This document shows positions 11,534 to 63,806 of a stretch of 64,000 nucleotides of DNA, in pieces. The stretch covers positions 139,199 to 203,198 of the forward strand of contig CAVOIR010000001.1 in assembly GCA_963696045.1 (NCBI GenBank), read 5' to 3'. Both the position numbers and the translations under genes were made by a program. The stretch's first letter is position 1. Each line of letters opens with the position of its first letter. The notes under the pieces are model-generated. The model saw nothing but the letters and a program-made list of their open reading frames with translations, made no database searches and was not told the DNA's origin. This DNA comes from an uncultured Chloroflexia bacterium (GTDB lineage Bacteria > Chloroflexota > Limnocylindria > Limnocylindrales > CSP1-4).

Positions 11534-12529
<996 letters not shown>

Positions 12530-12544
12530 GGCACGCTCGGCGGC

Positions 12545-13430: not shown

Positions 13431-13439
13431 CAGCGGCCG

Positions 13440-14791: not shown

Positions 14792-14825
14792 GGCCCGCAG
14801 ACTACACCGAGATGCCCTCTGGTCT

Positions 14826-42282: not shown

Positions 42283-43012
42283 ATGACCTGGGTCGTGCTG
42301 CCCACCTACAACGAGGCCCAGAACCTGCGCCGGCATCAGCGAGCGCCATCCTCGACGCGCTGCCCGGCGCGCACCTGCTCGTCGTCGACGACGCCTCGCC
42401 CGACGGCACCGGGACGCTGGCCGACGGCCTGGCCGCCGCGGACCCGCGCGTCGAGGTCCTCCATCGCGCCGGCAAGGAGGGCCTCGGCCGGGCCTACGTC
42501 GACGGCTTCGCCGACGTGCTCGCGCGCGGCGCCGGGCGCGTCGTCCAGATGGACGCCGACTGGTCGCATTCGCCCGACGACCTGCCGGCGCTCATGGCCG
42601 CCCTCGACGGCGGCGCCGACCTCGTCATCGGCTCGCGCTACGCGCGCGGTGGCGGCGTGCGCGACTGGGGCCTCGCTGCGGCGCATCGTGTCGCGCGGCG
42701 GCTCGATGTTCGCGCGGGTCGTGCTGGGCCTGTCGCCCCACGACCTGACGGGCGGCTTCAAGGCCTGGCGCGCGACGACCCTCGAGGCCATCGACTGGGG
42801 CCGCGTCCACTCGGGCGGCTACGTCTTCCAGATCGAGACGACGTACCTCGCGAGCCGTGCCGGCGCGCGCGTCGTGGAGGTGCCCATCGTCTTCAAGGAC
42901 CGCGAGGTGGGCACGCAGCAAGATGTCCAAGTCGATCATCCTCGAGGCGCTCGTGGTGGTCCTGCAGCTGCGCTGGGACGAGCTGCGCGGACGCGGTCCG
43001 CGGCGCGCCTGA
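42283..43012 (+). CDS. Polyprenol-phosphate mannosyltransferase-like GT2 (Ppm1/DPM1 family), frame changes
   Basis: VVLPTYNEAQN, LLVVDDASPDGT, GKEGLGRAY, QMDADWSHSPDDL, IGSRYARGGG, GGFKAW. Confidence 0.8.
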
Positions 43013-43175
43013 GCGCCGTCCTGCCGAAGTCCGCGGTCCGGGTTAGGCTGGGCGTCCCCAGCGCGTCGCACCGCGGCCGTGGACGCGCGACCGAGGAGAC
43101 TGCGAGACCGTGAGCATCCGAGCGGCCGACCCACGAGGCGGCTAGCCGCGACCCGCGCCTCGCACTGTCACGATC

Positions 43176-44483
43176 GTGGCCGCCAACCCCTTCGAGTTCG
43201 ATTCGCGCTTCCTGCGCTCCGCGACCTCGCTGGCGGCGGACGGCCACCGGCTGCGCATCCTCGGCTGGTCGGCGCCGGGCCTGCCCGCCGAGGAGGAGCT
43301 GGCGCCCGGGGTGCGGCTCACGCGCCTGGACATCGACCGGCGCATCAGCTCGGCGCTGCGTCCCCTGCCGCGGACGCGTCCGCGGCTGGCTCAGCCGGCT
43401 CGTCGGGCTCGACCCCGAGGCCCGGGTCCTGCCGCCGGACGCGCCACGCGGCCTCGACCGCCTCCGTCACCCCCTGCGGCGCACGCTCGAGGTCATCGCC
43501 AATGCGCGCCGCGCCGGTCCCTGGGCGGACGTCGTCGTGGCCACCGCGCCCGGAGACCGACGTCTTCCACGCCCAGTCGCTCATCGTCCTGCCCGTCGTG
43601 CGCACGCGCCGCCCGCCGCCTCGGCGGACGCTTCGTCTACGACGTGGCCGACTACCACACCGAGGCCGCCCGCCTGGCACGCATGCCCTGGCTCGTCCGC
43701 GAGGTCGTGCGCCGTCGGGAGCGCGACTGGGCCCGCGATGCCTCGGCCTTCCTGGCCGTCAGCGACCCGGTGGCCGACCTGCTCGTGCGGCGCTGGGGCG
43801 TCCCGCGGCCGACCGTGCTCTGGAACTGCCCGCCGGCCTGGCGTCCCGGACGAGCCGGGGCCCATCGCCTCGGACCGCATCCGCGCCGCGACCGGCATCG
43901 AGCCCGAGCGGCCCATCGTCCTCTACCAGGGCGGCTTCTCCGTCGACCGCGGCGTGGAGGAGCTCGTGGCGGCGGCCACCTCGCCGCGCCTCATGGAGCT
44001 CGGTGCGGCCATCGTGTTCATGGGCTACGGCCGGCTGGAGACGCATCATCGCCGAGGCCGTGGCGGCGCACCCGGGACGCATCTACCTGCTGCCCGCCGT
44101 GCGCCCGGACGACCTGCATGCCCTGGACGGCGAGCGCGGACGTCAGCTTCGTGGGACAGCCGCCGCGCACCCTGAACCAGCGCATGAACCTCCCCAACAA
44201 GCTCTTCGAGTCGCTGATGGCCGGCGTCCCGGTGGTCGTTAGCAAGGCTAACGAACAGTGCCGCCTGACGACGGCCGAGGGCGTCGGGCGTCTGCGCCGA
44301 CATCGACGACCCGGCGGCCATCGCGGCCGCCTGCGCGGAGCTCCTGTCGGCGCCCGTCGCCGAGCGGCGCGCCCTGCGCGCCCACTGCCGCGCCGTGGCC
44401 CTCGCGCGCTACACGTGGGAGCACACCTCGGTCGGGCCTCGTGGAGCTCTATCGGCGGCTGGCCCGGGACGGGGCGGCCGTGA
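43176..44483 (+). CDS. GT4-type (GT-B) glycosyltransferase (frame changes)
   Basis: The N-terminus reads ANPFEFDSRFLRSATSLAADGHRLRILG. The middle reads GGRFVYDVADYH. The C-terminal nucleotide-sugar motif region is NLPNKLFESLMAGVPVVVS. Confidence 0.6.
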   Translation: MAANPFEFDSRFLRSATSLAADGHRLRILGWSAPGLPAEEELAPGVRLTRLDIDRRISSALRPLPRTRPRLAQPARRARPRGPGPAAGRATRPRPPPSPPAAHARGHRQCAPRRSLGGRRRGHRARRPTSSTPSRSSSCPSCARAARRLGGRFVYDVADYHTEAARLARMPWLVREVVRRRERDWARDASAFLAVSDPVADLLVRRWGVPRPTVLWNCPPAWRPGRAGAHRLGPHPRRDRHRARAAHRPLPGRLLRRPRRGGARGGGHLAAPHGARCGHRVHGLRPAGDASSPRPWRRTRDASTCCPPCARTTCMPWTASADVSFVGQPPRTLNQRMNLPNKLFESLMAGVPVVVSKANEQCRLTTAEGVGRLRRHRRPGGHRGRLRGAPVGARRRAARPARPLPRRGPRALHVGAHLGRASWSSIGGWPGTGRP

Positions 44484-44499
44484 GGCCTCGCCCGGACGC

Positions 44500-45382
44500 T
44501 GATCCGGCGGCGGCCGTCCTGGGCGTCCGCGCTGGTCGCCATCGCGCTCGCTGCGTCCTCACGGGCGTCCTGGCCACACGCGGTCGCTGCGGGCCGTCGA
44601 GCCCGCGTGCGGCGCCAGCGACGCGCGCCGCCTCGTCTCCGAGGCGCAGCTGCGCCGGCGGCCCGTTCCGCAGCGTCGTGCTGGTGGCCGTCGGCGAGCG
44701 CGTCGTCTGCACCGGCTTCGTCGTGGCTCCGCGCAAGGTCGTGACGGCGGCCCACTGCCTGGCGCGCGACGCGTCCGGCGGTGACTTCCGCTTCCGGCGC
44801 GACCTGCCCGGCGAGCGTGCGCCTCTACCGCGCCTTCAGCCAGGCGGCCGGCGGCGAGACGTTCGGCAGCTGCGCGGTGTCGAGCGTCTGGGCGCATCCG
44901 CGGTTCATCAAGGGCGACCCGGACGACCCGGCGTTCGGCAGCCGCGCTCACGACTACGCCGTCCTCACCGTCCCCGAGGAGTGCGCCTACCCGAACAGCG
45001 CGGTCATCCGCATGTGGCCGACCGACGAGGCGGACGGACGAGCTCCCCGCCGGGACGCGCCATCTTCCTGTCCGGCTACCCGGCCGACGGGCGCTTCGAG
45101 GGCATGAACGGCCTGAACCTCTGGCGCAGCCAGGGCGAGGTGCGGCCGCCCGACGGCGACCCGCGCCTCATCGACACGACGGGCTTCGTGGCCCAGGGCA
45201 TGAGCGGCGGCCCGGTGTGGGGCTCGTTCGGCGCGGACTCCCCGTGCGGCCGCGCGCAGTGCGTCGTCGGCATCCTCACCGAGTGCGCCGTGAACGGCCA
45301 GGGCCAGTGCCGGCTCGGCGACAGCCTGCGCCGCGCCATCCGCATCACGCCCACGGTCAAGGCCGCCATCCAGCGGCGCTGA
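44500..45382 (+). CDS. Secreted trypsin-like (S1) serine peptidase (frame changes; start approximate)
   Basis: The catalytic triad contexts are VVTAAHC (His), HDYAVL (Asp) and AQGMSGGPV (Ser). A signal-like segment ASALVAIALAAS lies upstream. Confidence 0.65.
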
Positions 45383-45412
45383 GGCCGCCGGCGCCGGCCG
45401 CCGACGGCCGCC

Positions 45413-46434
45413 TCAGCGTGCGGCAGGATCTCCTCGGTCACCGCGTCCGCGAGCGCCTCGAGGTCCGGCGTCGCGGGCTGCCGCTTGACGACGACGACGT
45501 CCTCGGCGCGCTCCAGGATCCGCAGGCGACCCTCGGCCACGAGCCAGCGGTCGACGGCCCCGAGCTCGCCCGCGAACGTCGTCCAGGTGGGCACGCCGAG
45601 GACGGCCGCCTCGCGGTTCATGGTGCCGCCGGCGCTGATGACGGCGTCGGCCATCCAGACGCAGCGAGGGCCCATCCACGGGCGCGGCGGGCACGATGAC
45701 GCCCGGGCGTGCCCGCGAAGCGCGGCGCCCTGCTCGGTCGTGCGCGGCAGCAGCACGACCTGGACGCCGCCGTCGAGGAGCCGCTCGAGCACCGTCGTCG
45801 AAGACGGTGTTGTGGAGGCCCCGGTGGTAGAGGCTCATCGTGGCCGGCGGGCGCAGCACGGCGATGGGACGCTGAGCGGTCCAGGCCGAGCTCGTCGAGC
45901 CACGCTCTCGTCGGGCACGAAGTCGGCCAGGGTCGACCTGCTCCTTGAGGCCCGGCGTAGGGCCGGTAGCGGCGACGGTCGAGGCCCAGGCGCGGCCAGC
46001 GACTCGAAGGGGATGACCTCGGGCAGCATGACCTTGTCGGCCAGGCGGAAGTTGATGCGGTGCATGCCCTGCGGCGCCCTCGAAGTCGTGCAGGACCGTG
46101 CTGTGGATGCGCAGCAGGCGCGCCGCCACGGCGAGGTCGTTGGAGCCGTGGCTCACCGCCTGGCTGAAGCCGCGCCCGCGCCCGAAGCGCACGAGCGCCC
46201 CCGAGCGCCGCACGAGCCCGAGGCCCTTGCCGCGCAGGGACGCGCCGCCGTGGCGGCCGATGACGGTGTGCGGGATGCCGAAGCGCTCGAGCAGGCCGAG
46301 CGTCTGGGCGAAGTCGCGCGCCGTGACGTCCACTCGACGCCGGCCTCGTCGAGCCGCCGCAGGATGGGCCGGAAGAAGAGGACGTGCGGCGAGTTGGTGA
46401 GGTCGATCCAGACCTTCGCGGGGCCAGCCGGCAC
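45413..46434 (-). CDS. DUF354-family protein (GT-B/epimerase-like fold), frame changes
   Basis: KVWIDLTNSPHVLFFRPILRRL, FGIPHTVIGRHGG, ISAGGTMNREAAVLGVPT. Confidence 0.6.
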
Positions 46435-46499
46435 GGTCAGCTAGAGGACGTCGACGCTCACGGCTCGCCGACTCTAGCACTCGTGGCATCCTTGCCGGC

Positions 46500-47633
46500 A
46501 TGCCCGGGCTCATCCACGTCGTCGGCGCGCGGCCGAACTTCATCAAGGCCGCGCCCGTCATCGCCGCGCTCCGGGCGGCGGGCGTCGAGCAGCGCCTCGT
46601 CCACACCGGCCAGCACTACGACCGCGGCCTGTCCGACGTCTTCTTCGAGGAGCTCGGCCTGCCCGAGCCGGACCTGAACCTCGGGCGTCGGCTCCGGCAG
46701 CCACGCGGCCCAGACGGCGGCGCTGCTGTGGCGCTCGAGGCAGAGCCTTCCTGGACCTGAGCGCCGGACGGCGTCGTCGTCTACGGCGACGTCAACTCCA
46801 CGCTGGCGGCGGCGCTCGTCTGCGCCAAGCTGCTCATCCCGGTGGCGCACGTGGAGGCCGGCCTGCGCTCCTTCGACGCGACGATGCCCGAGGAGGTCAA
46901 CCGGCGCGTCACCGACCTGCTCTGCGACCCGCTCTTCGTGACGGCGCCCGAAGGGCGAGGTCAACCTCGCCGCCGAGGGCATCAGCGGCGAGCGCGTCGT
47001 CTTCGTGGGCAACCCCATGATCGACACGCTGCTGGCGCACCTCGACCGTCTCCAGCCGGGGCCGGTCATGGCGCGCCTGGGGCTGACGGCGCCGTATCGG
47101 GGTCGCGACGCTGCATCGGCCGGCCAACGTGGACACGCCGAGGCGCGCCGCGCGCGCTCGTGGAGGCGCTGCGCGCGGCCACGCGGCGCCTGCCCATCGT
47201 CCTGCCGCTCCATCCCCGCGGCCGCGCGCACGCTCGCCGCGGCCGGCCTGACGGAGGTGCCCGGCCTGCATCGTCGTCGACCCGCTCGGCTACCTCGACT
47301 TCCTCTCGCTCGTCCGCGGCGCGGCCGTCGTCATCACCGATTCGGGCGGCATCCAGGAGGAGACCACGATCCTCGACGTGCCCTGCCTGACGCTGCGCCC
47401 CAACACGGAGCGGCCCATCACGCTGACGCGCCGGCACGAACCGGCTGGTCACGCCGGAGACGCTGGCCGATGCGCTCGATGCCGCCCTGGCCGGCGCCCA
47501 GGCGCGGCCCGGCGACGGGCCACCGGGCTGGGACGGCCACGCCGGCGAGCGCATCGCCGCGGTCCTCGTGGAGCGCTGGGGACGGCTGGCCGGGACGCGT
47601 CGTCGCGACCGAGCGCACCGGCCAGCCGGGTGA
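46500..47633 (+). CDS. wecB: UDP-N-acetylglucosamine 2-epimerase, non-hydrolysing (frame changes)
   Basis: [64 protein letters not shown]. Confidence 0.85.
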
Positions 47634-48758
47634 GCAGGCCGCCGCGCCGTCCGACGCGCCCGCGGACGCGCGCCATCCTCCTGCCCTCGTACGCCTGGAA
47701 CCCGTACCAGCGCCTGCTCGCCGCTGCGCTCGACGGAACAGGGCGTCGGCGCGCGCGCGCTCGGCCAGTGGCCGCGCCGCGCCCCCATCCTGGGCGCCTG
47801 GTGGGCCAACGGCCGGCCGGACGTCGTGCACCTCCACTGGATCCACGAGTTCCTGGGCGGCAGCCGGGGCCCGCCATCCGCGCCGCACCGTGCGCTGGTT
47901 CGACTGGCAGCTGCGCATCCTCAAGGCGCGCGGCGTGCGCATCGTCTGGACGGTCCACAACCTGGAGGGCCACGAGGCGGCGGCGCCGACCGCGATGCCG
48001 AGGGGCCCAGCGCGACGCCGACGGCCGCACCGCAGCCATCATCGAGCGCGCTGACGCCATCATCCTCCACTGCGCCGCCGCCCGCGACGGGCTCATCGAT
48101 CGCTACCGGCCCAGCGACGGCCGCCCGGCGGCGGATGCACGTGCTGCCCCACGGCAACTACGTGCCGCCAGTACGCCGTCGACCTCGACCGCGACGCAGG
48201 CCCGGGCGGACCTCGACCTCGCCTCGGCCGGACCCGTCTTCGCCTTCGTGGGCTCCATCCGCGGCTACAAGGGCGTCGGCGAGCTCCTCGAGGCCTTCAG
48301 CGGCGCAGGCCGACCTCGGGCCGGACGCCCGGCTGCTCGTCTGCGGCAAGCCGCTGCCGAGCCGGCTCGGCCGCGAGCTCGAGGAGCGCGCCGCGGCCGA
48401 CCCGCGCATCAGGCTGCGCCTCGAGCGCATCCCCGAGGCGGACCTCTCGCGCGTCCTCCGCGCGGCCGATGCGGTCGTGCTGCCCTTCCGCGACATCCTC
48501 ACCTCGGGCAGCGCCATCCTGGCCCTGAGCCACGGTCGCCCGGTCATCGCCCCGGCCCTGGGCTGCCTGCCCGAGACGCTGCCGGCGGACGCCACCATCC
48601 TCTACGACCCGGCCGCACCCGGATGCCCTGGCGGCGGCCCTGCGCGATGCCGCCCGCGCCGACCTGGCCGCCATGGGGCTGCGTGCCCGGGCGTTCGCGG
48701 ACACCTCGACTGGGGACCCATCGCGGCGGCCACGGCGCGGCTCTACCGGGGCGACTGA
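47630..48758 (+). CDS. GT4-type glycosyltransferase (frame changes)
   Basis: The GTG overlaps the wecB stop (GTGA). DVVHLHWIHEF, RIVWTVHNL, FVGSIRGYKGV, LLVCGKP, SGSAILALSHGRPVIAP. Confidence 0.65.
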
Positions 48759-48775
48759 GCCGCGCCCGAGGGCGC

Positions 48776-49782
48776 TCAGAAGGCCATCGCGCCCCTAGCC
48801 CGAGCCTCTTGCCGCGCCCCGGCTTCGCTCAGCCCGCTCGTGTCCGATCCGCCTTCCGCGCCGCGGCGGCCGCCTTCGATCTCCTCGAGCTCGGCGAGGT
48901 CCTCGTCGTCGAGCTCGGCTTCGTCGAGGTCGGCTCGCCCTCGGCGACCTCGGCCAGCCGTGCCCTCCTTGCGGGCCGTGCGGATGTCCACGAGGTCGAC
49001 CTTGCCGTGCTTGATGAGCTGCTTGGCCTTGCGCTTCTGCTTCATGCGCCGCTCGGCGTCGTCCTCGTGCATGTCGGCGATCTCCTCGGGATCGCCCTCG
49101 GCCACGATCTGGCCCTTGTCGAGGAGGATGGCGCGCGTGCAGAAGGCCGTGATCCAGCTCATGTCGTGGGTGACCATGACGACGGCCTTGGCCGTCTGCA
49201 GCACCTCGGCGATGCGGCGCCGGCTCTTCTCCTTGAACTTGTTGTCGCCGGTCTGGAGGACCTCGTCGAGCAGCAGGATGTCCGGGTCCACGGCGGTGGC
49301 GATGGAGAACCCGACCCGGGCCCGCATGCCCGACGAGTACGTCTTCATGGGCGCATCGATGAAGGCCCCGATGTTGGCGAAGGAGATGATGCCCGGGCGT
49401 GATCTCCTCCATGAGCTTGTGGTCGATGCCCATGAGCGCACCGGCCAGGGCGATGTTCTCGCGGCCCGAGAGCTCCTCGTCGAGGCCGGCCTGCAGGCTC
49501 AGCAGGGTGGAGACGTGACCGTGCGCCTCGACCACGCCCTCCGAGGGCTGGATGATGCCGGCCAGCGCCAGCAGGAGCGTGGACTTGCCCGAGCCGTTGG
49601 GCCCGATGACGCCCGACCGCCTCGCCGCGGCTGACCGTCAGGTCGACGCCGCGCAGCGCCCAGAAGTGGCCCTTCCGTCGTCGCCGCGGGTCGAGGAGGT
49701 TGGCGAAGGTCGTCTGCAGCTTGGTCTTCTTGGTGAGGTTGAGGTTGTAGCGGACGCCCAGGTTCGTGGCCCGCAGCGCCAT
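48776..49782 (-). CDS. ABC transporter ATP-binding protein, Wzt/TagH-type polysaccharide exporter (frame changes)
   Basis: Walker A VIGPNGSGKSTLL (reverse complement of about 49570-49610), signature YSSGMRARVGF, Walker B ILLLDEVL. A charged C-terminal tail of about 100 aa follows. Confidence 0.8.
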
Positions 49783-49937
49783 CTCCCCCGTGGGCACCGG
49801 GCACGCGCAGGCCGAACGTGCCGGGCTCGGGCGCCTCGTCGTCGGCCTCCACGGCGGACGTCGTCGAGCTGGGCCAGGGCGGCCTCGTCGAGGCGGCTGT
49901 CGTGGCGGTTCCTCCCGGCCGCCCGTGGTCGGGTCGC

Positions 49938-50908
49938 TCACAGGAGCTTCGCGAAGGCCGGCTCGAGCCGCTTGAAGACGATGCGTGCCGATGACGATGA
50001 AGACGACGCCCGAGACGAAGATGACGGCCAGCATCGGGAGGTCGGGATGCGTGGCGGGCGTCCAGATGAGCTCGCGCCCGCCATCGGCCGTCGGGGTGGC
50101 ACCGAGGTCGCCGTAGATGACCTTGCGGTACGACTCCAGCAGGATGGCCATGGGGTTGTAGTGGAGCACGTTGAAGAGGGTCCCGATGGGCAGGCCCGAG
50201 GGCCTGGTCGGCATCGGCCATGGCCTCCTCGAGCGCCTGGCCGCGGCCGGCCACCGCGTTGAACGACCAGAGGATGGGCGAGACCCAGAAGAGCAGGCGC
50301 ATGAAGTGCCCGATGACGATGCCCACGTCGCGGTAGAAGACCGTGACGGCCGCGACCATGAACGTGAAGCCCAGCACGAAGACGAACTGCACGACCGCGA
50401 TGAGCGGCACCCAGACGACCTGCGACCGTGAGGTGGGCTGGTGTAGGCCACGAGCAGGACCAGGAACAGCACGAGCATGCCGAAGAGGAAGCTCACGACC
50501 TGGGAGAGGTCGCTCGTCACGGGCAGGATGATCTTGGGGAACATGATCTGCTTGATGAGGCCCTGTCTGCCCGTGACCGCGTGGGTCGAGCTGCCGATGG
50601 TCGAGGTGAACCACTTGAAGGGCACCATGGCGGAGAGCAGGAAGAGCGGGAAGTCGGGCGTCGCGCGCTGGAAGATGACGGTCATGACGAGCACGTAGAT
50701 GAGCATCGTGATGAGCGGGTCGAGCACCCACCAGACGTTGCCCGAGCACGGTGTTGGCGCCGCGCTTCTTGATGTCGGCGCGGACCATGTAGCCGATGAG
50801 CCGACGGCGCGACCAGACGTCGGTGATGGCGTTGCGGATGAGGGCGACCGGACCAGGCCGGTCGGCGCTGCTGCGGAAGGCAGCAGGTGCCTCGTTGACG
50901 ACTCCCAT
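49938..50908 (-). CDS. ABC-2 type (Wzm/TagG-like) exporter permease (frame changes)
   Basis: RRLIGYMVRADIKKR, LDPLITMLIYVLVMTVIF, FLLSAMVPFKWF, LIKQIMFPKIILPV, YNPMAILLESYR. About six TM helices. Confidence 0.75.
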
Positions 50909-51026
50909 GGACGGCCTAGATGGTAGCGGACCGCGCGGCCGCCGCGACCGGCCCGCTCGGGACGGCCGGGAGCCGCGCCGGCTCGCCTGCCGGACCGCAG
51001 TCGCGCCCGGCGCTAGAGTCGGGCCG

Positions 51027-52336
51027 GTGACGCGCCCCAGCCCGCAGCCCGTGTTCGTCGTCGGCGGTCCGCGCTCGGGCACGACGCTGCTCTCGGCCAT
51101 GCTGGCCGCGCATCCGGCCTTCGACTGCGGTCCGGAGACGCATTGCCTGTCGCGCTGGGCGCGCCTCGGGCGCCGCGAGCGGGCGCGCATCCTCGACCCG
51201 GCCGACTGGCCCGCGCCGCGCCACCGCCTACGTGACCAGCCTCTCGCTCGGCAAGCAGCCCATCCACCCGATGTACGGCCTGACGCGCGAGGACGTCCGC
51301 GCCTGGCTGGCCGCCCGGCCGCCGTCGCTGGCCGCCATGCTCGAGTCGCTCACCGAGCAGCGCGCGCTGCGCGACGGGCGCGCCGCGCTGGGTGGAGAAG
51401 ACGCCGCGCCACCTCGAGGTGCCGGAGCTCATCGTCGAGACCTGGCCGGGGGCGCGCCTCGCTGCGCATCGTGCGCGATCCGCGCGACGCGGCCGTGTCG
51501 CTCACGAGGGTGCCCTTCGGGACGCCGTCGCTGCTCACCAACCTCTCGGTGCTGGCGCGCATGAACGAGGCGGCGGCCGACTTCTATCGCGACCTCGCCG
51601 CAGGCCCTCACCGTGCGCTACGAGGACCTCGTGGCCGAGCCGGAGCGGGAGCTGCGGCGCATCTGCGACTTCGTGGACGAGCCGTACGACGCGCGCATGC
51701 TCGAGGACCGCAGCGCGGTCAGCGGCGTCGCCGCCGCGCACGAGTGGTGGAAGGGCGATGCCACCGGGCCCACTCGACCGCGGCCGCTCCGGGCGCTGGC
51801 GCGAGGAGATGCCCGCCGAGGTGCAGCACTACGTCGCGCTCAACATGGGCGACCTGCTCGAGGAGCACGGCTACGGCACGGCGGTGCCGGCCGCCCGCCA
51901 GCTGGCCATCGTGCCGGCCGGGGACGCCCTGAGCTCGAGGTACGACGACGTCCTGCTCCGGCTCGCCGCGTCCGACGTGGCCGTCCGCCGGCCGGTCCCG
52001 GCCACCATCGAGCAGCTGCACCTCCAGGAGCCGCTCGTGTTCTTCGGCGTCGTCGGCCAGCTCGACCCGGACCGCGGGCAGCCGGCGCGCCGAGCGCGTC
52101 GTGGCCATCGCCAGGCTCGGCGCGCTGCTCCTGACGCGGCGGCTGCAGGGCCGCCCGGTGGTCTGGGTGCGGCGCCTGAGCCTCATCCGCCGCCATCCCC
52201 GCGACGGCGGCGAGCGCGTTCATCGCGCGCCTGCTGCAGGTGCTCGCGGTCGCGCGGAGGCCGACGACCTGCCGGCCCTCGTCGGCGCGGACGGCCGAGA
52301 CGCCTCGACCGCGTCGCTCGTGACGACCGAGGCTGA
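51027..52336 (+). CDS. Sulfotransferase paralogue 1 with C-terminal extension of about 150 aa (many frame changes)
   Basis: 5'-PSB loop VFVVGGPRSGTTLLSAMLAAHP, 3'-PB region LRIVRDPRDAAVSL, then LTVRYEDLVAEPERELRRICDF, HEWWKG, GRWREEM. The extension reads IVPAGDALSSRYDDVLLRLA...LVFFGVVGQLDPDRG...LLLTRRLQGRPVVWVRR. Confidence 0.7.
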
Positions 52337-53652
52337 GGTCGCCTCGCCGCCTCCGGCGTCGCATCGGCCGCGGCGCCCATCTTCGTCGTCGGCGTGGCTC
52401 GCTCGGGCACGACGCTCCTGTCGGCCATGCTGTCGGCGCACTCGCGCCTCGACTGCGGCCCGGAGTCGCGCTTCTTCGCCCGCTTCCGCCACCTCGACGC
52501 GCAGCGCGCGTCGCGCCACGCTCGACACCGGCCGACCTGGCCCGGGCCCCGCGGTCGACTTCATCGCCTCGCTGCGCAACCAGGGCCACCCGGTCGTCGG
52601 AGCTCTTCGGGCTCCGGCTGCGCGACGTGCGCGAGTACCTCGCGGGCCGGCCGCCGTCGCTGGCGGCGATGCTCGAGTCGCTCACCGTCCTCCACGCCCG
52701 CCGGGCGGGCAAGGCGCGCTGGCTCGAGAAGACGCCCCGCCACCTGCTCATGACCGACGCTGCTGCGGCGGCTCTGGCCGGAGGCCCGCATCGTGCGCAT
52801 CGTGCGCGACCCGCGCGACGTGGCCCTCTCGCTGGCGGGCCTGCCCTTCGCCAAGGAGTCGGTCGTCGGGAACCTCGTCCGCGTCGACCAGGACGATCGC
52901 GCCTCGCGCGACCGCATCGCCGCGGACCCGCTGGCCATGACCCTGCGCTACGAGGACCTGGTCACGGAGCCGGAGCGGGAGCTGCGGCGGATCTGCGACG
53001 TTCGTCGGCGAGGCGCTACGAGCCCGCCATGCTCGATTCGCGGACGCTCGGCGGCGGCCGTCGCAGCCGACCACGAGTGGTGGAAGGCCGCGGTGGCGGG
53101 ACCGCTCACCACCGCCAGCGTGGGACGCTGGCGGCGCGAGATGTCGGCCGATGCGCAGCGCTTCGCGGCGCTCCACCTCGCCGACTTCCTGCGCGAGCAC
53201 GGCTACGAGGGCGCCCGCGACGCCGCGCACGAGGTGGCCATCGTGCCCGGTCGCGGACGCGTGTCGGGTCCGCACAACGAGCGGCTCCTCCTCGAGCTGG
53301 CGCGCCGCTCCGCGGTCGTGCGTGCGACCCGCTCCCGACGAGCCTCGCGGAGCTCCACGCCCAGGCGCGACCTCGTCTTCCTCGGCGTGCGCGGCCAGCT
53401 CGACCCGAGCCGCGGGCGGCCCATCGCCAGGCGCGCTCATCTCGTGGCCTCGGCATCGGGGCCGGGCTGCTCGTCCGGCGGCTGCAGCGCCGTCCGGTCC
53501 TCTGGGTCCGCCGCGCCACGCTGCGAGCCGCGACGCCCACGCGATCCCGCTGGAGCTCTGCCTCGTGGCCGCTGCTGCGCCTGCTGGCTCGCCAGGTCGA
53601 ACCCGAGGAGGTCTGGCAGCCGCCTGCCGCCTCCGCGCTCGACGCGGCGTGA
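52320..53652 (+). CDS. Sulfotransferase paralogue 2 with the same C-terminal extension (many frame changes)
   Basis: IFVVGVARSGTTLLSAMLSAHS, WLEKTPRHL, RIVRIVRDPRDVALSL, MTLRYEDLVTEPERELRRICD, HEWWKA, GRWRREM. The extension reads IVPGRGRVSGPHNERLLLELA...LVFLGVRGQLDPSRG...LLVRRLQRRPVLWVRR. Confidence 0.7.
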
Positions 53653-53709
53653 TCCCGAGCGCCAGTCGCGCGCCCGCAGCCGGCGTGCCCGCTAGACTCG
53701 GCGTGGCCG

Positions 53710-54812
53710 ATGCGCATCATCGTCACCGGCGGCGCCGGCTTCATCGGCTCCACGTTCGTGCATCGGCGCCTCGCCGCCACGCTCTGACCACGTCACGGTC
53801 GTCGACAAGCTCACCTACGCGGGCAACCCTGCCAACCTGGACGGCCTCGCCGACGACCCCGCCACCCGCGAGCGCTACCGCTTCGTCCAGGCCGACATCG
53901 CCGACGAGCCGCTCATGCGGGAGCTCGCCGCCGAGCACGACGCCATCGTCAACTTCGCCGCCGAATCGCACGTCGACCGCTCCATCCTCGAGCCGGCCGC
54001 CTTCCTGCACACCGGCGTCATGGGCGTCTACTCGCTGCTCGAGGCCGCGCGCGCCGAGCACGAGAAGCGCGGCGGGTCAGGCCGCCGCGGCGACGAGGGT
54101 GCGACGTCAGGCCTTGACGCCGACCAGCGGCTTCCGCTTCCTCCAGGTCTCGACCGACGAGGTCTACGGCTCCGTGCCGGTCGGCCTCAGCGTCGAGAGC
54201 GACCCCATCCGGCCCGACCAGCCCCTACAGCGCCGCCAAGGCGGCCGGCGAGCATCTCGTGGCCGCCTACCACGAGACCCACGGCCTCGACACCGTCGTC
54301 ACGCGCGGCGCCAACACCTACGGCCCCCACCAGTATCCCGAGAAGCTCATCCCGCTCTTCATCACCAACGCGCTCGACGACGAGCCGCTGCCGATGTACG
54401 GCGACGGCATGCAGCGCCGCGACTGGCTCTTCGTGGACGACCATGCCGACGGCATCGCCGTGGCCCTCGATCGCGGCGCCAGCGGCGCCGCCTACAACCT
54501 GCCCGGCGACGGTGTGGAGCGGCCCAACCGCGCGGTCACCGAGGCCATCCTCGAGGCGCTCGGCAAGCCCTGGTCGCTCGTCCGCACGCGTGCCCGACCG
54601 ACCCGGCCACGACCGCCGCTACGCTCTCGACGGGTCGCGCCTCCGCGGCCCTCGGCTGGCAGCCGCGCGTCTCGTTCGAGGAGGGCATCGCCCGCACCAT
54701 CGCCTGGTACGCCGAGCACCGCGACTGGTGGGAGCCCATCAAGCGCGGCGATTGGGCCGACTACTACCGCGCCCAGTACGCCTGGCGCCTCGAGCAGTCG
54801 GTCGAGGCCTGA
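53710..54812 (+). CDS. rmlB: dTDP-glucose 4,6-dehydratase (frame changes)
   Basis: MRIIVTGGAGFIGS, VDKLTYAGN, NFAAESHVDRS, QVSTDEVYG, YPEKLIPLF, PMYGDGMQRRDWLFVDDH. Confidence 0.9.
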
Positions 54813-55049
54813 GCCGGCTCGGCCGCCTGACGCACGGGCCCCTCACGACCGCCGGCCCACGCGGTCACGACGGTCGGCGCCGACGCGCTAGACTTCGGCG
54901 GCGCGCGCTCGCGACCGTCAGTCCCTCGTGGCGCCGCAGGGACGCGCGCCAGCCCGGCGCTGGCCCCTGCGACCGAGACGTCGTCCGGCCCAGGCGCCGC
55001 CAGACGACCCGAAGCGCCCCACATCCACCAACCGGAGACCAGTCACCGC

Positions 55050-58997
<3,948 letters not shown>

Positions 58998-59001
<4 letters not shown>

Positions 59002-59729
59002 GCATCGGCGGAGGCATGCGCTACCGGGCCGATGGCCGGACGCCGGGCCAGATGCGCCCGGTCTCCATCGACCTCGACGTGCAGAAGTGGGCCGCGGCCT
59101 CGCTCATCTTCCGGCAGGGCGACACGCACGTCGTCTGCTCGGCCACCGTCGAGGACCGCATCCCGCCGCACCTGCGCGGCAAGGGCACGCGGCTGGGTCA
59201 CCGCCGAGTACGCCATGCTGCCGGCGGCCACCTCGGAGCGCATGCAGCGCGAATCGGTCAAGGGCCGGCCGGGCGGCCGGACCTACGAGATCCAGCGCCT
59301 CATCGGCCGCGCCCTGCGCGGCGTCGTGGACACCTCGGTCATGGGCGAGCGCACCGTGACCATCGACTGCGACGTGCTCCAGGCCGACGGCGGGACGCGC
59401 TGCGCCTCGATCACCGGCGGCTACATCGCGCTCGTGCTGGCGCTGCGCAAGGTCGGGCCTCGAGCGCGCCATCACCAGCAAGATCGCCGCCATCAGCGTG
59501 GGCATCGTGGCCGGCACGCCGCTGCTCGACCTCGAGTACCGCGAGGACTCGAGCGCCGAGGTCGACTTCAACGTCGTGGGCACGGACGCCGGCACGTACG
59601 TCGAGATCCAGGGCACCGCGGAGGGCAAGCCCTTCGACCGCGCCCAGATGGACCGCCTCCTGGCGCTCGCCGACGGCGGCCTCGCAGAAGCTCTTCGCCA
59701 TGCAGGCCGAGGTGCTCGCGCAGCGGTGA
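58998..59729 (+). CDS. rph: Ribonuclease PH (frame changes)
   Basis: The ATG overlaps the mazG stop (ATGA). [59 protein letters not shown]. Confidence 0.9.
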
Positions 59730-60400
59730 CGGATCCGTCGGCGGCCGTCCGGAGCGGTTCCGGAGCGGCGCCTCCTGCTGGCCACGCGGGCGCGCCACAA
59801 GGTGCGCCGAGCTGGCCGAGCTGCTCGACCTGCCCGGGGTCACGCTGCGTCACGCCCGGACGAGGTCGGCGTCGAAGGTGAGCCGGTCGAGGACGCCGAC
59901 TCGTTCCGCGGCAACGCCGAGATCAAGGTCCGCTACTACGCCGCGCGCTCCGGGCTGCCCACCCTGGCCGATGATTCGGGCCTCGAGGTGGACGCGCTCG
60001 ATGGACGGCCCGGCGTCTACACGCGGCGCTACGCGGGACCCGATGCCACCGACGCGCAGAACAACGCGCGGCTCCTGGCCGAGCTCGACGGCGTGCCGCC
60101 CGAGCGGCGCGGCGGCCCGCTACCACTGCGTGCTCGCCTACCTCGACCCCGGCGCGCCCGGCGTCCCGCGCCGGTCTTCCGCGACGGCACGTTCGAGGGC
60201 CGCATCGCGGCCGGTCCGCGTGGCGACGGCGGCTTCGGCTACGACCCCGTCTTCGAGCCCGCATCCGAGCCGCCCGGAGGGCGTACCGTGGGCCAGATGA
60301 GCGCCGCGGAGAAGCACGAGCTGTCGCATCGCGGCAAGGCCGCCCGCGCCATGGCCGAGTACCTGCGCGGCACGGACCTCGTGCGCGGCAGGGCGGCTGA
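59726..60400 (+). CDS. rdgB: Non-canonical purine NTP pyrophosphatase RdgB/HAM1 (frame changes)
   Basis: The GTG overlaps the rph stop (GTGA). [51 protein letters not shown]. Confidence 0.8.
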
Positions 60401-60402
60401 CC

Positions 60403-61362
60403 GTGCCCGTCGACCGACCCCGCGTCGTCGTCGGCGGCGAGGCCCTCATCGACCTCATCATCGACCAGTCCGGCCGCGTCACGCCCGGCGCCCGGCGGCG
60501 GCCAGTACAACACGGCCCGCGCCATCGCCCGACTCGGGGGCGACGCGCACTTCCTCGGGCGCATCTCGGACGACTGGTTCGGGCGCCTGCTGCGCGGCCG
60601 GCTGGAGGCCGACGGCGTGGGCACCGACCTCGTCGTCGAGACGGCCGACCCGACGACGCTCGTCCTGGCCGAGATCGACGCCGGGGCGTGGCGCACTACC
60701 ACTGGTACATCGAGCGGACGACGGTGCCCGGGCCTCGAGCTCGACGGACGCGCGCCGCGCCCTCGCTCCTGCGCCGGATGCGCTCCACGTCGGGACGCTG
60801 GGCCTGACCATGGAGCCGGTGGCCGATTCGCTGGCCGCCTCGTGGCCGAGGTGCCCGACCGAGACCCTCGTCATGGTCGACCCCAACTGCCGGCCGACCG
60901 CGACGCCGGACGTGGCCGTCTACCGCGAGCGCATGACCCGCGTCCTGGGTCGCGCCGACATCGTCAAGGGCAGCGACGAGGACTTCGCCTATCCTGGCCC
61001 TGGCCGACTCGACGGAGGCTGCCGCGCGGTGCCTGCTCGAGCGCGGCGTCGGCGCCGTCATCGTGACCCACGGCTCGGAGCCGGCGCGGGCCTGGTGCGC
61101 CGGCGGCGAGGTGAGGTGCCGGTGCCCGGGTCGAGGTCGTCGACACGGTCGGTGCCGGCGACACCTTCGGCGGCGCCTTCCTGGCCTGGTGGCTGGAGCA
61201 GGGCCTGGGCCGGGAACAGCTCGGCGACCGCGACCTGCTCGCGACGCCGTGACCTTCGCCGCCCGCGCCGCCGCCATCAACTGCACCCGCGCCGGCGCCG
61301 AGCCGCCGACCCGCGCCGAGATGGTCAGCGGAACCTCGGAGCCGCCACAATGGCCGCCATGA
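60403..61362 (+). CDS. PfkB-family carbohydrate kinase (frame changes)
   Basis: VVVGGEALIDLI, GGGQYNTARAIARLGG, ADIVKGSDEDF, VVDTVGAGDTFGGAFL (PfkB signature 2), INCTRAGAEPP. Confidence 0.7.
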
Positions 61363-61375
61363 GGACGATCGCGGG

Positions 61376-61957
61376 ATGAGGATGGACGTTCGCCGGACCT
61401 CGCTCCCCGAGGTGCTCGTCGTCGAGCACGAGGCCTTCGACGATGAGCGGGGCTTCTTCATGGAGGTCTATCGGGCCGATCATTTCGAGGAACACGCGGA
61501 CCTGGCGCTACCCAGCCGGTTCGTGCAGCTCAACCACAGCCGAAGCGTCCGCGGCGTCGTGCGCGGCCTCCACTTCCAGTGGCAGCCGCCGATGGGCAAG
61601 CTCATGCGGGTGGCGCGGGGCGAGGCCTTCATCGTGGCGGTGGACATCCGCCCTGGGTCACCGACGCTCGGCCGATACGAGTCGATCGTCGCGAGCGACC
61701 AGAACCACCTGCAGCTCTGGGCGCCGGCGTCCTTCGCGCGCGGCTTCTGCGTGCTGTCCGACGTCGCCGACATCGAGTACCTGACGACGGGCACGTACGG
61801 CCCCGGGGCCGAATCGGGCATCGCCTGGAACGACCCGGACATCGGCATCGACTGGCCGATCGCCGAGCCGATCCTGTCGACCAAGGACGCTGCCGCACAG
61901 TCACTCGCTGACTGGCTCGCCCGCCCGGAGGCGCAGCACTTCCGGTACCCCGGCTGA
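61376..61957 (+). CDS. rmlC: dTDP-4-dehydrorhamnose 3,5-epimerase
   Basis: Intact 193 aa. FDDERGFFME, RGLHFQ, GKLMRVARGEAFIVAVDIR, LWAPASFARGF, AESGIAWNDP. Confidence 0.9.
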   Translation: MRMDVRRTSLPEVLVVEHEAFDDERGFFMEVYRADHFEEHADLALPSRFVQLNHSRSVRGVVRGLHFQWQPPMGKLMRVARGEAFIVAVDIRPGSPTLGRYESIVASDQNHLQLWAPASFARGFCVLSDVADIEYLTTGTYGPGAESGIAWNDPDIGIDWPIAEPILSTKDAAAQSLADWLARPEAQHFRYPG

Positions 61958-61969
61958 GTCCCAGACGCC

Positions 61970-61983
61970 GCCGGGCGCCCGGC
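61970..61983. terminator. Perfect 14-nt GC palindrome between convergent rmlC and vapC (possible bidirectional terminator hairpin)
   Basis: GCCGGGCGCCCGGC is its own reverse complement. It lies 13 nt after the rmlC stop. No U-tract is present. Confidence 0.25.
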
Positions 61984-62012
61984 TCCTGGTCGGCGTGACA
62001 CTGCCTGATCGC

Positions 62013-62409
62013 TTATCGGGCGGATCTCGATGAAGCCGGCAGCCGCGAAGTCTCCGTCGAAGGCGAGCGCCTCGGTCATCCGCAGGCGACGCATCACCTG
62101 GAAGCTCGTGCCGTCGACGAACGAGTAGTCACGCTCGTCATGTCGCCGAAGCCAGGACCACGCCGCCGCCCTGGCCGCCGGGTCGACCTCGATGACCGTA
62201 AGCCGAGGGCTGGCCTCCACCGCATCCAGGAAGCCGACCGCCTCCGCATGGCCTGCCTTTCGGCGCAGGAACGTCCATGTCTCTCCCACGACCAGGTCCG
62301 TGGTCGCCAGCGGATGCGAGCGATCGGACCACAGCGCGACGGCGTCGCGGTGGTGAGCGTCGCGCCGGTATCTGTACGCGACCCAGAACGATGTATCGAC
62401 GAACCTCAT
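62013..62409 (-). CDS. vapC: PIN-domain toxin VapC (second module; C-terminal stop probably displaced by one indel)
   Basis: MRFVDTSFWVAY (PIN Asp), TTDLVVGETWTFL, DYSFVDGTSFQVMRRL, EALAFDGDFAAAGF. TAA at 62013-62015 is one frame off, and the track ORF runs on antisense through rmlC. Confidence 0.75.
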
Positions 62410-62612
62410 GGCCGGTAGACGATCTCGTCGATGTCGCCGGGGTCCTCGTCGAGCCCGCCTGCCCAGCCGTCGAATGGGTCCTCGGAGGGCTTGCCATATT
62501 CACGCCGTACGGCATCCCGGATGAGAGCGGCCTTCGAACGGCCCTCCTGTCGCGATCGGCGCGTCAGGAGCTCATCAGACTCGTCATCGATGTAGATCTG
62601 CAGTCGCTTCAC
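62406..62612 (-). CDS. Ribbon-helix-helix (CopG-like) antitoxin
   Basis: VKRLQIYIDDESDELLTRRSRQEGRSKAALIRDAVRREY is RHH. The stop overlaps the vapC ATG. GTG 62612 is preferred over ATG 62627 because of the TATACT box 6 nt upstream. Confidence 0.7.
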   Translation of the reverse strand: MKRLQIYIDDESDELLTRRSRQEGRSKAALIRDAVRREYGKPSEDPFDGWAGGLDEDPGDIDEIVYRP

Positions 62613-62618
62613 GCCCAC

Positions 62619-62646
62619 AGTATACATCACATTGTCGATGTATACG
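62619..62646 (-). promoter_or_regulatory. Inverted repeat AGTATACAT-N10-ATGTATACG containing a TATACT -10-like box (candidate TA operator/promoter)
   Basis: The arms lie at 62619-62627 and 62638-62646 and match 8 of 9. The minus strand reads TATACT-gtgggc-GTG(62612). Confidence 0.4.
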
Positions 62647-62768
62647 CCAGTCCGCGCCTCCCTCCGCCGCGGCACGACTGCCCTGTACCATCGATGTGTC
62701 ATCCCCGACCTTGATCGGCGACCGGAGGGAGATGTGCCGAGGATCCCGCGCACGCCACTCGTCGCGGC

Positions 62769-63806
62769 GTGACCGACGCCGCACCGTCGGCCGAGGGCCA
62801 CGTCAAGCCCCCGCGGGTGACTCTCTCGCTCGTCACGTTCAACGGCGCCCGCTGGATCCCGGGGTGCCTCGCATCCATCGCCGAGCAGGATCTGGCCGAC
62901 TTCGAGCTGCTGATCTGCGACAACGCCTCGTCCGATGGCAGCCAGCAGATGCTGCGGGAGTGGGTCGAGCGGGATGAGCGCGCGAGCCTTCACGAATCGA
63001 CCGTCAACCTGGGGTACGCGGCCGCCCACGACCGCGCCATCCTGGCCGCCCGCGGCGAGTTCGTCGTCCTCGTGAACCAGGACGCCGAGCTGGACCCCGG
63101 GTTCCTCAACGCGATCGTCTCCGCGTTCGAACAGCACCCGGAGGCAGCTTCGGTCCAGCCCCGGCTTCGACAGCTGTCGACGACCGGGGAGCGTCTCGAG
63201 ACGCTGGACACCACGGGCCTCGTCATGGGCCGCGACCGCCGCGCGGTCAGTCGGGCGCAGGGCCTCCGTGACGGCCCCGACCATCAGCGCCCGGGCGAGG
63301 TCTGGGGGGCTGATGGGCCGCTGCCGGCCTATCGGACGCGAGCGCTCCGTGAGGCCGCGCTCCCTCGCGAGGACGGCTCTCCCGAGATCCTCGACGAGGA
63401 CTTCTTCATGTACAAGGAGGATGTCGACCTGGCCTGGCGACTGCGCCTCCTGGGATGGACGGCCTGGTACGAGCCAGCAGCGCTCGGCTGGCATGCACGC
63501 GGCACCGGTGTCACCGGGGCCACCGCGATGCTGGACATCGCCCGCACGAACCGCGGTCTCCCCTACGCAGCACGGAAGCGCTCGTGGGTGAACCAGCGCC
63601 TCATGGTCATCAAGAACGAGGACGCGGGGACGCTGCTGCGCGACCTGCCCTGGATCGCCGCGCGGGAGGCCCTTTCGCTCGTCTACATGCTCTTCCTCGA
63701 CCCCCGTCGGCTCAGCGCCGTGCTGCCCCTCGTTCGGCTCGCCCCATCGGCCTTCCGCAAGCGCCGTGCGCTCCGAGCCCTTGTGCGCGCCAGCCGACTG
63801 GCATGA
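62769..63806 (+). CDS. GT2-family glycosyltransferase (rhamnosyltransferase-like)
   Basis: Intact 345 aa. SLVTFNGARWI, LLICDNASSDGS, NLGYAAAHD, VVLVNQDAEL, EDFFMYKEDVDLAWRL. Confidence 0.8.
   Translation: MTDAAPSAEGHVKPPRVTLSLVTFNGARWIPGCLASIAEQDLADFELLICDNASSDGSQQMLREWVERDERASLHESTVNLGYAAAHDRAILAARGEFVVLVNQDAELDPGFLNAIVSAFEQHPEAASVQPRLRQLSTTGERLETLDTTGLVMGRDRRAVSRAQGLRDGPDHQRPGEVWGADGPLPAYRTRALREAALPREDGSPEILDEDFFMYKEDVDLAWRLRLLGWTAWYEPAALGWHARGTGVTGATAMLDIARTNRGLPYAARKRSWVNQRLMVIKNEDAGTLLRDLPWIAAREALSLVYMLFLDPRRLSAVLPLVRLAPSAFRKRRALRALVRASRLA

Follow-up and report, generated by a model that had tools for sequence, protein, structure and literature searches.

A predicted export and sulfation locus for a cell-envelope glycan in an uncultured Limnocylindria bacterium

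Sulfated glycans occur widely in animals, algae and some archaea, and among bacteria only a handful of lineages are documented to have them. The locus considered here lies in 64,000 nucleotides of DNA (the window) from an uncultured Chloroflexia bacterium of the Limnocylindria, an abundant soil and lake class (GenBank assembly GCA_963696045.1, contig CAVOIR010000001.1, positions 139,199 to 203,198 of the forward strand). Its genes, at 42283-57721 of the window, are read with moderate confidence as a pathway dependent on an ABC-2 exporter (ABC, ATP-binding cassette) for a sulfated cell-envelope glycan containing N-acetylmannosamine (ManNAc), which would be a polymer or a glycolipid. Central to this reading are two predicted sulfotransferases, Stf1 and Stf2, which would use 3'-phosphoadenosine 5'-phosphosulfate (PAPS), and a kinase for adenosine 5'-phosphosulfate (APS).

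Among described systems, the capsule locus of Cobetia marina KMM 1449 combines rhamnose genes, glycosyltransferases, an ABC exporter, a sulfotransferase and PAPS genes, and rhamnose 2-sulfate (Rha2S) was proven in its product by nuclear magnetic resonance (PMC11766843). A similar sulfated capsule locus is present in Vibrio sp. KMM 8419 (PMC11641403). Synechocystis PCC 6803 makes synechan from the xss cluster, which includes the two sulfotransferases XssA and XssE (PMC8205485), and Pontiella makes sulfated exopolymers (PMC7356697). These publications put out of date the view, taken in a preliminary description of the window, that bacterial carbohydrate sulfation is documented only in mycobacteria and rhizobia. 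The Limnocylindria are an uncultured class, and their phylum is regarded as monoderm-type, without a lipopolysaccharide (LPS) outer membrane (PMC10608941). A literature search returned no sulfotransferase or sulfated glycan reported for Limnocylindria.

Gene content, reading frames and conservation

The guanine plus cytosine (G+C) content of the window is 69-78%. Raw open reading frames (ORFs) are short and overlap in all frames, and Pfam matches to them span only 30-100 profile residues before the frame changes. Owing to frameshifts, raw ORF lists and simple filtering by third-position G+C (GC3) were unusable for gene calling. They were replaced by a dynamic programme that tolerates frameshifts and aligns intact orthologues, as protein, to the DNA, combined with a codon-usage frame tracker. 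Read in this way, the locus comprises the following features (GT, glycosyltransferase; PPIase, peptidyl-prolyl isomerase).

42283-42985, plus strand: GT2, polyprenyl-phosphate sugar transferase-like (Ppm1/DPM1/ArnC type); PF00535, E 2.8e-26, also matched by the L011 orthologue
about 43132-44540, plus strand: glycosyltransferase GT4a, about 470 aa; Glyco_transf_4 fragment, orthologues with Glycos_transf_1 and Glyco_trans_1_4
44596-45379, plus strand: trypsin-like protein; Trypsin_2, E 6.6e-9, and orthologue match
45417-46434, minus strand: DUF354 protein, divergent from wecB; orthologue PF04007, E 1.7e-50
46476-47582, plus strand: WecB, predicted non-hydrolysing UDP-GlcNAc 2-epimerase yielding UDP-ManNAc; Epimerase_2 fragments, orthologue TIGR00236 275 against a cut-off of 210
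47576-48755, plus strand: glycosyltransferase GT4b; Glyco_trans_1_4, orthologue data
48776-49951, minus strand: ABC exporter ATPase, TagH/Wzt-like; ABC_tran (PF00005)
49941-50908, minus strand: ABC-2 permease, Wzm/TagG-like; ABC2_membrane fragment, orthologue PF01061, weak galactan Wzm match
50909-51029: about 120 bp of intergenic DNA, with the exporter genes and the sulfotransferase string diverging from it
51030-52295, plus strand: sulfotransferase Stf1; Sulfotransfer_3, E 1.4e-12
52364-53652, plus strand: sulfotransferase Stf2, a paralogue; Sulfotransfer_3 fragment, paralogue alignment and motifs
53710-54812, plus strand: RmlB, predicted dTDP-glucose 4,6-dehydratase; Epimerase and GDP_Man_Dehyd fragments, orthologue TIGR01181 398 bits against 365
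about 55050-57130, plus strand: membrane-anchored SurA/PrsA-like parvulin PPIase; Rotamase, E 1.7e-24, with N-terminal SurA_N_3, a transmembrane segment and a first rotamase domain
57170-57721, plus strand: APS kinase (CysC); PF01583, E 1.7e-33, orthologue TIGR00455 199 against 138.7

After frame repair, every gene named in the preliminary description was recovered at, or within about 70 nt of, the start assigned to it. Seven features inside the span had been omitted there, namely the trypsin-like protein, the PPIase, MazG, RNase PH, Ham1/RdgB, the PfkB kinase and a VapC/RHH pair. The proposed ABC-2-exporter-type glycan locus with two embedded PAPS-type sulfotransferases and a nearby APS kinase is supported by gene identities and by co-conservation.

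The upstream edge of the locus is the GT2 gene at 42283, with MreB, MreC and a FlgD_ig-domain protein encoded just upstream. The best NCBIfam matches of this GT2, all under cut-off, are AglJ, PpgS, dolichyl-phosphate hexose transferase and ArnC. The DUF354 protein would be a GT-B-like transferase; a sequence search gave no solved homologue, and a literature search gave only unrelated DUF354x families. Most versions of the locus keep a protein of the trypsin-like serine-protease fold in the interval from GT4a to DUF354, which is unusual for a glycan cluster.

The exporter consists of an adjacent PF01061 permease and PF00005 ATPase on the minus strand. TagH and galactan Wzt are the best matches of the ATPase, with NCBIfam scores under the equivalog cut-offs (209 bits against 538 for TagH, 172 against 400 for Wzt). 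Its C-terminal tail is charged and of low complexity, and no Wzt_C carbohydrate-binding domain was found in it. The idea that the sulfotransferases act as chain terminators read by a carbohydrate-binding domain of Wzt was dropped, as the ATPase has no such domain and is 314-433 aa long across relatives. The intergenic region at 50909-51029 presumably holds promoters. No sigma-70-like site was detected in it, and a scan for promoters and terminators did not rise above chance.

Broken reading frames had been suspected before, and rightly so. Protein-guided alignment located 72 frameshifts in nine genes, almost all of them +1 insertions (Stf1 8, Stf2 12, WecB 10, DUF354 11, GT4b 10, Wzt 7, Wzm 5, RmlB 5, APS kinase 4), and 10 in GT4a. 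According to the frame tracker, their density is about 1 per kb at 1-20 kb, about 5-7 per kb at 20-61.35 kb, where they are single-base insertions, and about 0.5 per kb at 61.35-64 kb. This unevenness points to read coverage or polishing that varied along the window, or to the joining of assembly segments with different levels of support. The number of frameshifts and their uneven density would also suit a decaying pseudogene array, in which the frameshifts are biological. That explanation is extremely improbable, since nearly all of the frameshifts are +1 insertions, the essential housekeeping genes RNase PH, MreC and GuaA are hit as often as other genes, each frame segment remains 80-96% identical to relatives in amino acids without an excess of stops, and the orthologous loci are intact. 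For the last three reasons, the frameshifts are best attributed to sequencing or assembly errors.

The locus was followed in a scan of one genome per species, which yielded 27 related loci, mostly in Microflora Danica long-read metagenome-assembled genomes (MAGs) deposited as 'uncultured Chloroflexia'. Related loci are labelled L001 onward, and P-labels such as P0125 denote members or contigs of the sulfotransferase family. The closest MAGs are about 80-81% identical to the window in DNA. About 22 species-level genomes keep the gene order GT4a, trypsin-like, DUF354 (minus), [WecC (minus)], WecB, GT4b, [variable], Wzt (minus), Wzm (minus), Stf1, Stf2, [Stf3], RmlB, PPIase, APS kinase, MazG, RNase PH, Ham1, PfkB. 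The UDP-ManNAc dehydrogenase WecC and a GT61 occur in some relatives and are absent from the window, and the number of sulfotransferase copies per locus ranges from one to three. In distant versions, sulfotransferase identity falls to 60% (L030/L031), 45% (P0125 locus) and 44% (L029). These versions have different sets of glycosyltransferases and no RmlB, and all of them keep the series WecB, GT4, further genes, Wzt (minus), Wzm (minus), one or more sulfotransferases, PPIase, APS kinase, MazG and RNase PH. The glycan, exporter, sulfotransferase and APS kinase genes are co-conserved as a module in relatives.

Where relatives have clean sequence, neighbouring genes between the sulfotransferases and Ham1 lie within a few bases of one another or overlap. 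Up to the APS kinase, the gaps measure 1-9 nt where there is no overlap; in one example, Stf1 and Stf2 share 4 nt, and PPIase and APS kinase are separated by 3 nt. From this tight packing, the string from the sulfotransferases to Ham1 is predicted to be co-transcribed. The PPIase always stands between the sulfotransferases and the APS kinase, even at 44% sulfotransferase identity. Its orthologues have 586-598 aa (e.g., L031 5609-7372 and L032 8201-9997). Two or three parvulin domains are present, and the copy in the window has a long Ala/Pro-rich linker.

Some relatives carry additional genes. In L007, an insert of about 4.5 kb (about 3400-8050) separates GT4b from the exporter; by eye, its genes resemble ArsR, an ACR3-type arsenite carrier, a TauE-like permease and a thioredoxin-like protein. 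In L031, a Bac_transf initiating phosphoglycosyltransferase, an NMT1-like protein and a sortase follow the housekeeping block (10774-14203), which hints that initiation and anchoring genes can sit just past the conserved core.

The sulfotransferases and their predicted acceptor

The two paralogues had been described as sulfotransferases with PAPS-binding motifs. This assignment holds, as both match the profile and retain intact PAPS-binding and catalytic-position residues. The fragment in the window reaches 48.8 bits for Sulfotransfer_3 (PF13469) against a cut-off of 27, and all intact homologues carry PF13469. More than 1000 homologues came from a search with a hand-rebuilt Stf1; at the top are intact proteins of 421-436 aa with 80-88% identity, and those with names are annotated 'MAG: sulfotransferase [Candidatus Limnocylindrales / Chloroflexota bacterium]'. 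Such names speak against an actinobacterial source, which a G+C content of 73-75% had at first suggested. The orthologous Stf1/Stf2 pair in L001 shares about 48% identity and the same two-domain architecture. Four motifs were located in both genes of the window.

RSGTTLL: 51072 (Stf1) and 52400 (Stf2)
DCGPE: 51123 (Stf1) and 52451 (Stf2)
EKTPRHL: 51395 (Stf1) and 52726 (Stf2)
RDPRD...S: 51474 (Stf1) and 52805 (Stf2)

In an alignment of nine sequences, R15, S16-T19, E36, K123, R148 and S156 are invariant, and E36, K123, R148 and S156 are also invariant among 60 homologues. The RSGTT loop (R15/S16-T19), which corresponds to the PAPS 5'-phosphosulfate site, and the 3'-phosphate Arg...Ser pair (R148...S156) align with the motifs of the tyrosylprotein sulfotransferases (TPST) and of the CurM sulfotransferase. 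E36 in DCGPE aligns with the glutamate of TPST2 CGEE, and K123 in EKTPRH with the lysine of TPST2 NKDP. These TPST2 residues we take, from structural work on that enzyme, to be the catalytic base and the catalytic lysine.

The catalytic domain extends from residue 1 to about 285 and was modelled by AlphaFold2 with a predicted local distance difference test (pLDDT) of 86 and a predicted template modelling score (pTM) of 0.85. Foldseek assigns a probability of 1.0 to TPST1/2, the CurM and olefin-synthase (OLS) sulfotransferases, and mycobacterial Stf9 and Stf1. A PDB sequence search returned the same groups as its only matches, namely TPST, the CurM/OLS sulfotransferase domains and Stf9/Stf1. 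Stf1 and Stf2 are thus assigned to the PAPS-dependent sulfotransferase superfamily, with the corresponding activity predicted. In the model, the first strand begins at residue 8, and neither an N-terminal signal nor a membrane segment is present. As PAPS is available in the cytoplasm and signal peptide and membrane anchor are missing, both enzymes should act there. Cytoplasmic sulfation fits a pathway that completes its product before ABC export.

A C-terminal alpha/beta domain of about 130 aa (residues about 288-415) follows, with F336, G338, G341-D344, R369, G372-P374 and W377 among its invariant positions. A PDB profile search with this domain found nothing, and a separate AlphaFold model (pLDDT 74) gave a best Foldseek match at E 0.037 and TM 0.42, which is not significant. 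Its interpretation as a remnant GT-B acceptor-binding half domain found no support, as no relative in sequence or fold was found.

Of the named families, NoeE (Nod-factor fucose sulfotransferase) comes closest. The match to NF052394 (40-44 bits against a cut-off of 500, E 1e-10) lies far below membership of that family, and the profile scans reported no Stf0-type (PF09037) or NodH-specific match. The nearest gene in a genetically studied cluster is synechan WP_011153583.1, by its position XssE, with 26% identity over the catalytic domain (E 1e-11).

The acceptor can be approached through the wider family, which comprises 247 clusters at 50% identity (E<=1e-30). Eight members of unusual length were examined and comprise two fusions to GT4, two to GT2, one to a methyltransferase, one four-fold sulfotransferase repeat and two with sulfotransferase domains only. 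Among the fusion and long members examined are P0130, P0134, P0148, P0168, P0237 and P0248, and a Solirubrobacterales protein of 1298 aa has four tandem sulfotransferase domains. All eight family contexts sampled are glycan-related, and three types were seen. The first is the ABC-2 locus, as in the window. The second is formed by Wzx-type flippase loci with GT2 or GT4 genes, where the two-domain relatives are 36-38% identical. In the third, found in other Limnocylindrales/Chloroflexota (L026 9974-17115, L027 and the P0136 contig), the order is MetK, Stf, Stf' (minus), GDP-mannose pyrophosphorylase, Stf'' (minus), phosphomannomutase and PGI/PMI. Here, three sulfotransferases are interleaved with GDP-mannose genes, and no exporter, glycosyltransferase or APS kinase is nearby. 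This third type could make a sulfated mannose-containing small molecule or glycolipid.

A carbohydrate acceptor for Stf1 and Stf2 is thus supported indirectly, by the glycosyltransferase fusions in four of the eight long relatives, by the glycan contexts and by the nearest named or studied relatives, which act on sugars or lie in sugar loci. The enzymes might instead act on protein tyrosine, a lipid or a small metabolite, in which case the glycan and ABC-2 neighbourhood would be coincidental or would export that product. The best matches in structure and sequence, tyrosylprotein sulfotransferases and polyketide synthase (PKS) sulfotransferase domains, point in that direction, as do the PPIase, a foldase for secreted proteins that always follows the sulfotransferases, and the conserved trypsin-like protein. 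Moreover, ABC-2 transporters also export lipids and drugs, and the ATPase also matches DrrA and NodI. However, the similarity to TPST amounts to 21-24% identity and is concentrated in the PAPS-binding core, and there is no precursor peptide or transporter of the PCAT type like those of the RaxST system. Considering also the fusions and the sampled contexts, a non-carbohydrate acceptor appears improbable.

PAPS supply, sugar donors and the proposed pathway

The cysC gene noted earlier near the sulfotransferases was found at 57170-57721, and the APS kinase is the probable supplier of PAPS to them. It is the only member found of a supply set of ATP sulfurylase, APS kinase and the phosphatase for 3'-phosphoadenosine 5'-phosphate (PAP). 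ATP sulfurylase and CysQ were found neither in the window nor within 10 kb of the locus in relatives. All 120 APS kinase homologues listed are at least 77% identical and belong to this clade; synteny is unchanged in the one that was examined. A rather unlikely alternative accepts the sulfotransferase-glycan module as real and assigns the APS kinase to a housekeeping operon (PPIase, APS kinase, MazG, RNase PH, RdgB) that serves assimilatory sulfate reduction via PAPS and lies downstream by chance. In relatives, the APS kinase starts 1-9 nt after the PPIase stop or overlaps it, and it is close to MazG, RNase PH and Ham1 in every one of them. Neither ATP sulfurylase nor CysQ accompanies it, unlike in the Cobetia cluster, and the GDP-mannose loci of the same sulfotransferase family have no APS kinase nearby. 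On the other hand, every ABC-type version of the locus, down to 44% sulfotransferase identity, has sulfotransferases upstream on the same strand with only the PPIase between, and the sulfotransferases would draw on whatever PAPS is made, even if it also serves other ends.

The preliminary description had treated 21.5 kb as one unit. This does not hold, since the housekeeping genes MazG, RNase PH, RdgB and PfkB occupy 57.8-61.3 kb. The conserved unit, predicted to be functional as such, covers about 15 kb (about 42283-57721) and is followed by these features.

57781-58992: MazG
58998-59747: RNase PH
59766-60368: Ham1/RdgB
60433-61323: PfkB sugar kinase
61376-61957, plus strand: RmlC; TIGR01221, 212.7 against 155.75
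62031-62714, minus strand: VapC (PIN)/ribbon-helix-helix (RHH) toxin-antitoxin pair (vapBC)
62769-63806, plus strand: GT2 glycosyltransferase; PF00535, E 8e-23

The segment with rmlC and vapBC (61376-62714) has no match in any of the 27 related loci. It sits between pfkB and a GT2 gene that adjoin each other in L001, the closest relative, and coincides with a drop of the G+C content to 0.686 and with the end of the frameshift-rich stretch. By these comparisons it is a lineage-specific insert, and RmlC is possibly an accessory gene outside the conserved locus. The second GT2, with a 69% identical orthologue next to pfkB, is matched only in L001 and L002. It is possibly accessory as well, being separated from the core by the housekeeping genes and the VapC/RHH pair.

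A product with rhamnose and hexosamine had been proposed. The hexosamine part is the better supported, as ManNAc. RmlB and RmlC pass their equivalog cut-offs, and RmlA and RmlD, the remainder of the RmlABCD set, were not detected in the window. RmlB is kept in close relatives only and is missing from L029, L030/L031 and the P0125 locus. As rmlC lies outside the conserved locus, RmlB alone carries the case for rhamnose, which is weak.

The absence of ATP sulfurylase, RmlA and RmlD from the window agrees with what had been reported before; none of them was detected in its repaired but imperfect translations. The rest of the window, read from repaired translations, likewise yielded no CysH, CysQ, WecA/TagO, Bac_transf or LCP ligase. 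The only other sulfur-related gene found encodes a TauE/SafE-family anion (sulfite/sulfonate) permease, with a DUF1634 partner, at 7405-8593. Elsewhere, a glycerate kinase (split by frameshifts), a fused Usp and GT2 protein and a mannosylglycerate-synthase-like glycosyltransferase are grouped on the minus strand (9471-14800) and could form a compatible-solute (glycosyl-glycerate) module; a GalE-like epimerase (15606-16575) comes after this group. Near the start of the window, the minus strand encodes a PemK/MazF-type toxin, an S-adenosylmethionine methyltransferase and a PIN-domain protein (2181-4151). An Rfam scan gave a single match, tRNA-Thr(CGT) at 1200-1274 on the minus strand, the only tRNA in the window.

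In the proposed pathway, the cytoplasmic GT2, two GT4 and DUF354 proteins would build the glycan on a lipid carrier. Sugar donors would be UDP-ManNAc from WecB, possibly a 6-deoxyhexose derived from RmlB and, in relatives with WecC, N-acetylmannosaminuronic acid (ManNAcA). Stf1 and Stf2, cytoplasmic and with a TPST/CurM-type fold, would then pass sulfate from PAPS to the glycan, at different positions or residues. The APS kinase, encoded in the same co-directional string, would complete PAPS. The TagG/TagH-like Wzm/Wzt pair, encoded divergently from the sulfotransferases, would export the sulfated product. The analysis established the gene identities, the intact catalytic motifs and a gene order that is kept among species and in deeper relatives; which acceptor is used, how the steps follow one another, co-transcription and what the APS kinase does are deduced from these.

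Several points weigh against this pathway. The copy of the locus in the window is not translatable as it stands. Most of the syntenic genomes are close (70-88% amino-acid identity), so that conservation partly reflects shared ancestry. The closest solved structures sulfate protein tyrosine or polyketide (acyl-carrier-protein) intermediates and not sugars, and the NoeE match remains far under its cut-off (40 bits against 500). The APS kinase has MazG, RNase PH and RdgB as neighbours in one block and could be a housekeeping enzyme of sulfate assimilation. In the window, ATP sulfurylase, PAP phosphatase, an initiating phosphoglycosyltransferase and a ligase were not detected. Finally, a sulfated product is predicted here from genes alone.

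A more specific proposal, speculative and unlikely, casts the product as a secondary cell-wall glycopolymer that carries sulfate. Such a polymer would stand in functionally for teichoic and teichuronic acids without containing phosphorus, and the negative wall charge of monoderm-type, oligotrophic Chloroflexota would come from it. The C-terminal Stf domain would dock on the lipid-linked polymer or on Wzm/Wzt, coupling sulfation to export. If so, the two-domain enzymes would represent a widespread and unrecognised family of bacterial polysaccharide sulfotransferases, with its 247 clusters spread over ABC-type and Wzx-type loci.

If the proposed pathway is correct, a conserved sulfation-plus-export locus would extend bacterial sulfated glycans to the Chloroflexota and offer a concrete clue to the cell envelope of the Limnocylindria. 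It would also nominate a large family of two-domain sulfotransferases as polysaccharide-modifying enzymes, which are sought for the microbial production of sulfated polysaccharides. Its value is limited in that it rests on gene content and neighbourhood, and that the general design has already been published for other bacteria.

Comparison with known systems

In structure, the sulfotransferases resemble TPST1/2 and CurM/OLS most closely (Foldseek E about 5e-11, TM 0.6-0.7 on the target), with the PRSGTT loop, the catalytic Glu, the Lys and the Arg...Ser pair in common. Identity is only 21-24%. The TPST enzymes differ in being Golgi membrane proteins that act on peptides, and the CurM sulfotransferase is a PKS domain that acts on an acyl carrier protein-bound substrate. 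Neither context resembles the locus.

NoeE, NodH, LpsS, Stf0 and the mycobacterial Stf1 and Stf9 share the PAPS-dependent sulfation of glycoconjugates in the cytoplasm, with a weak sequence similarity to NoeE and a similar fold in Stf9 and Stf1. The TM-scores of the model to mycobacterial Stf1 and Stf9 are only 0.30-0.35. These families differ in acting on Nod factors, LPS or trehalose glycolipids, and they lack the C-terminal domain.

The ABC pathways of wall teichoic and teichuronic acids and of O-antigens (TagGH, Wzm/Wzt, WecB, TuaD-like) resemble the locus in pairing an ABC-2 permease with a TagH/Wzt-like ATPase, in making UDP-ManNAc, in assembling the product in the cytoplasm before its export, as is predicted here, and in a monoderm-type phylum. 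In contrast to the teichoic and teichuronic pathways, no TagO/WecA, TagA, TagB/F or LCP ligase was detected in the 64-kb window (such genes may be encoded in other parts of the genome), and the ATPase stays under the equivalog cut-offs. Furthermore, charge would come from sulfate, and from ManNAcA in relatives with WecC, instead of phosphate.

The synechan cluster likewise has two sulfotransferases embedded among the glycosyltransferases of an extracellular polysaccharide locus. Unlike the locus described here, it is Wzx/Wzy-dependent and plasmid-borne, has its own regulators and contains no APS kinase, and XssE, at 316 aa, has no C-terminal domain.

The Cobetia and Vibrio loci also bring together glycosyltransferases, dTDP-rhamnose genes, an ABC exporter, a sulfotransferase and PAPS-synthesis genes. 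Their hosts are diderm Gammaproteobacteria, and their exporter is of the Kps type (group III capsule), with KpsSC and priming by 3-deoxy-D-manno-octulosonic acid (Kdo). They possess a full PAPS set of cysDN/C and cysQ as well as a sulfate permease, whereas the Chloroflexota locus has the APS kinase only. The latter further differs in its exporter of the TagGH/Wzm-Wzt type, in its different, two-domain sulfotransferase family, and in being known from genes alone. The preliminary description had judged the layout probably uncharacterised, which is not the case for the general design. New here are the phylum, a TagGH/Wzm-Wzt-type exporter in a monoderm-type lineage, the uncharacterised two-domain sulfotransferase family, and the invariable PPIase between the sulfotransferases and the APS kinase.

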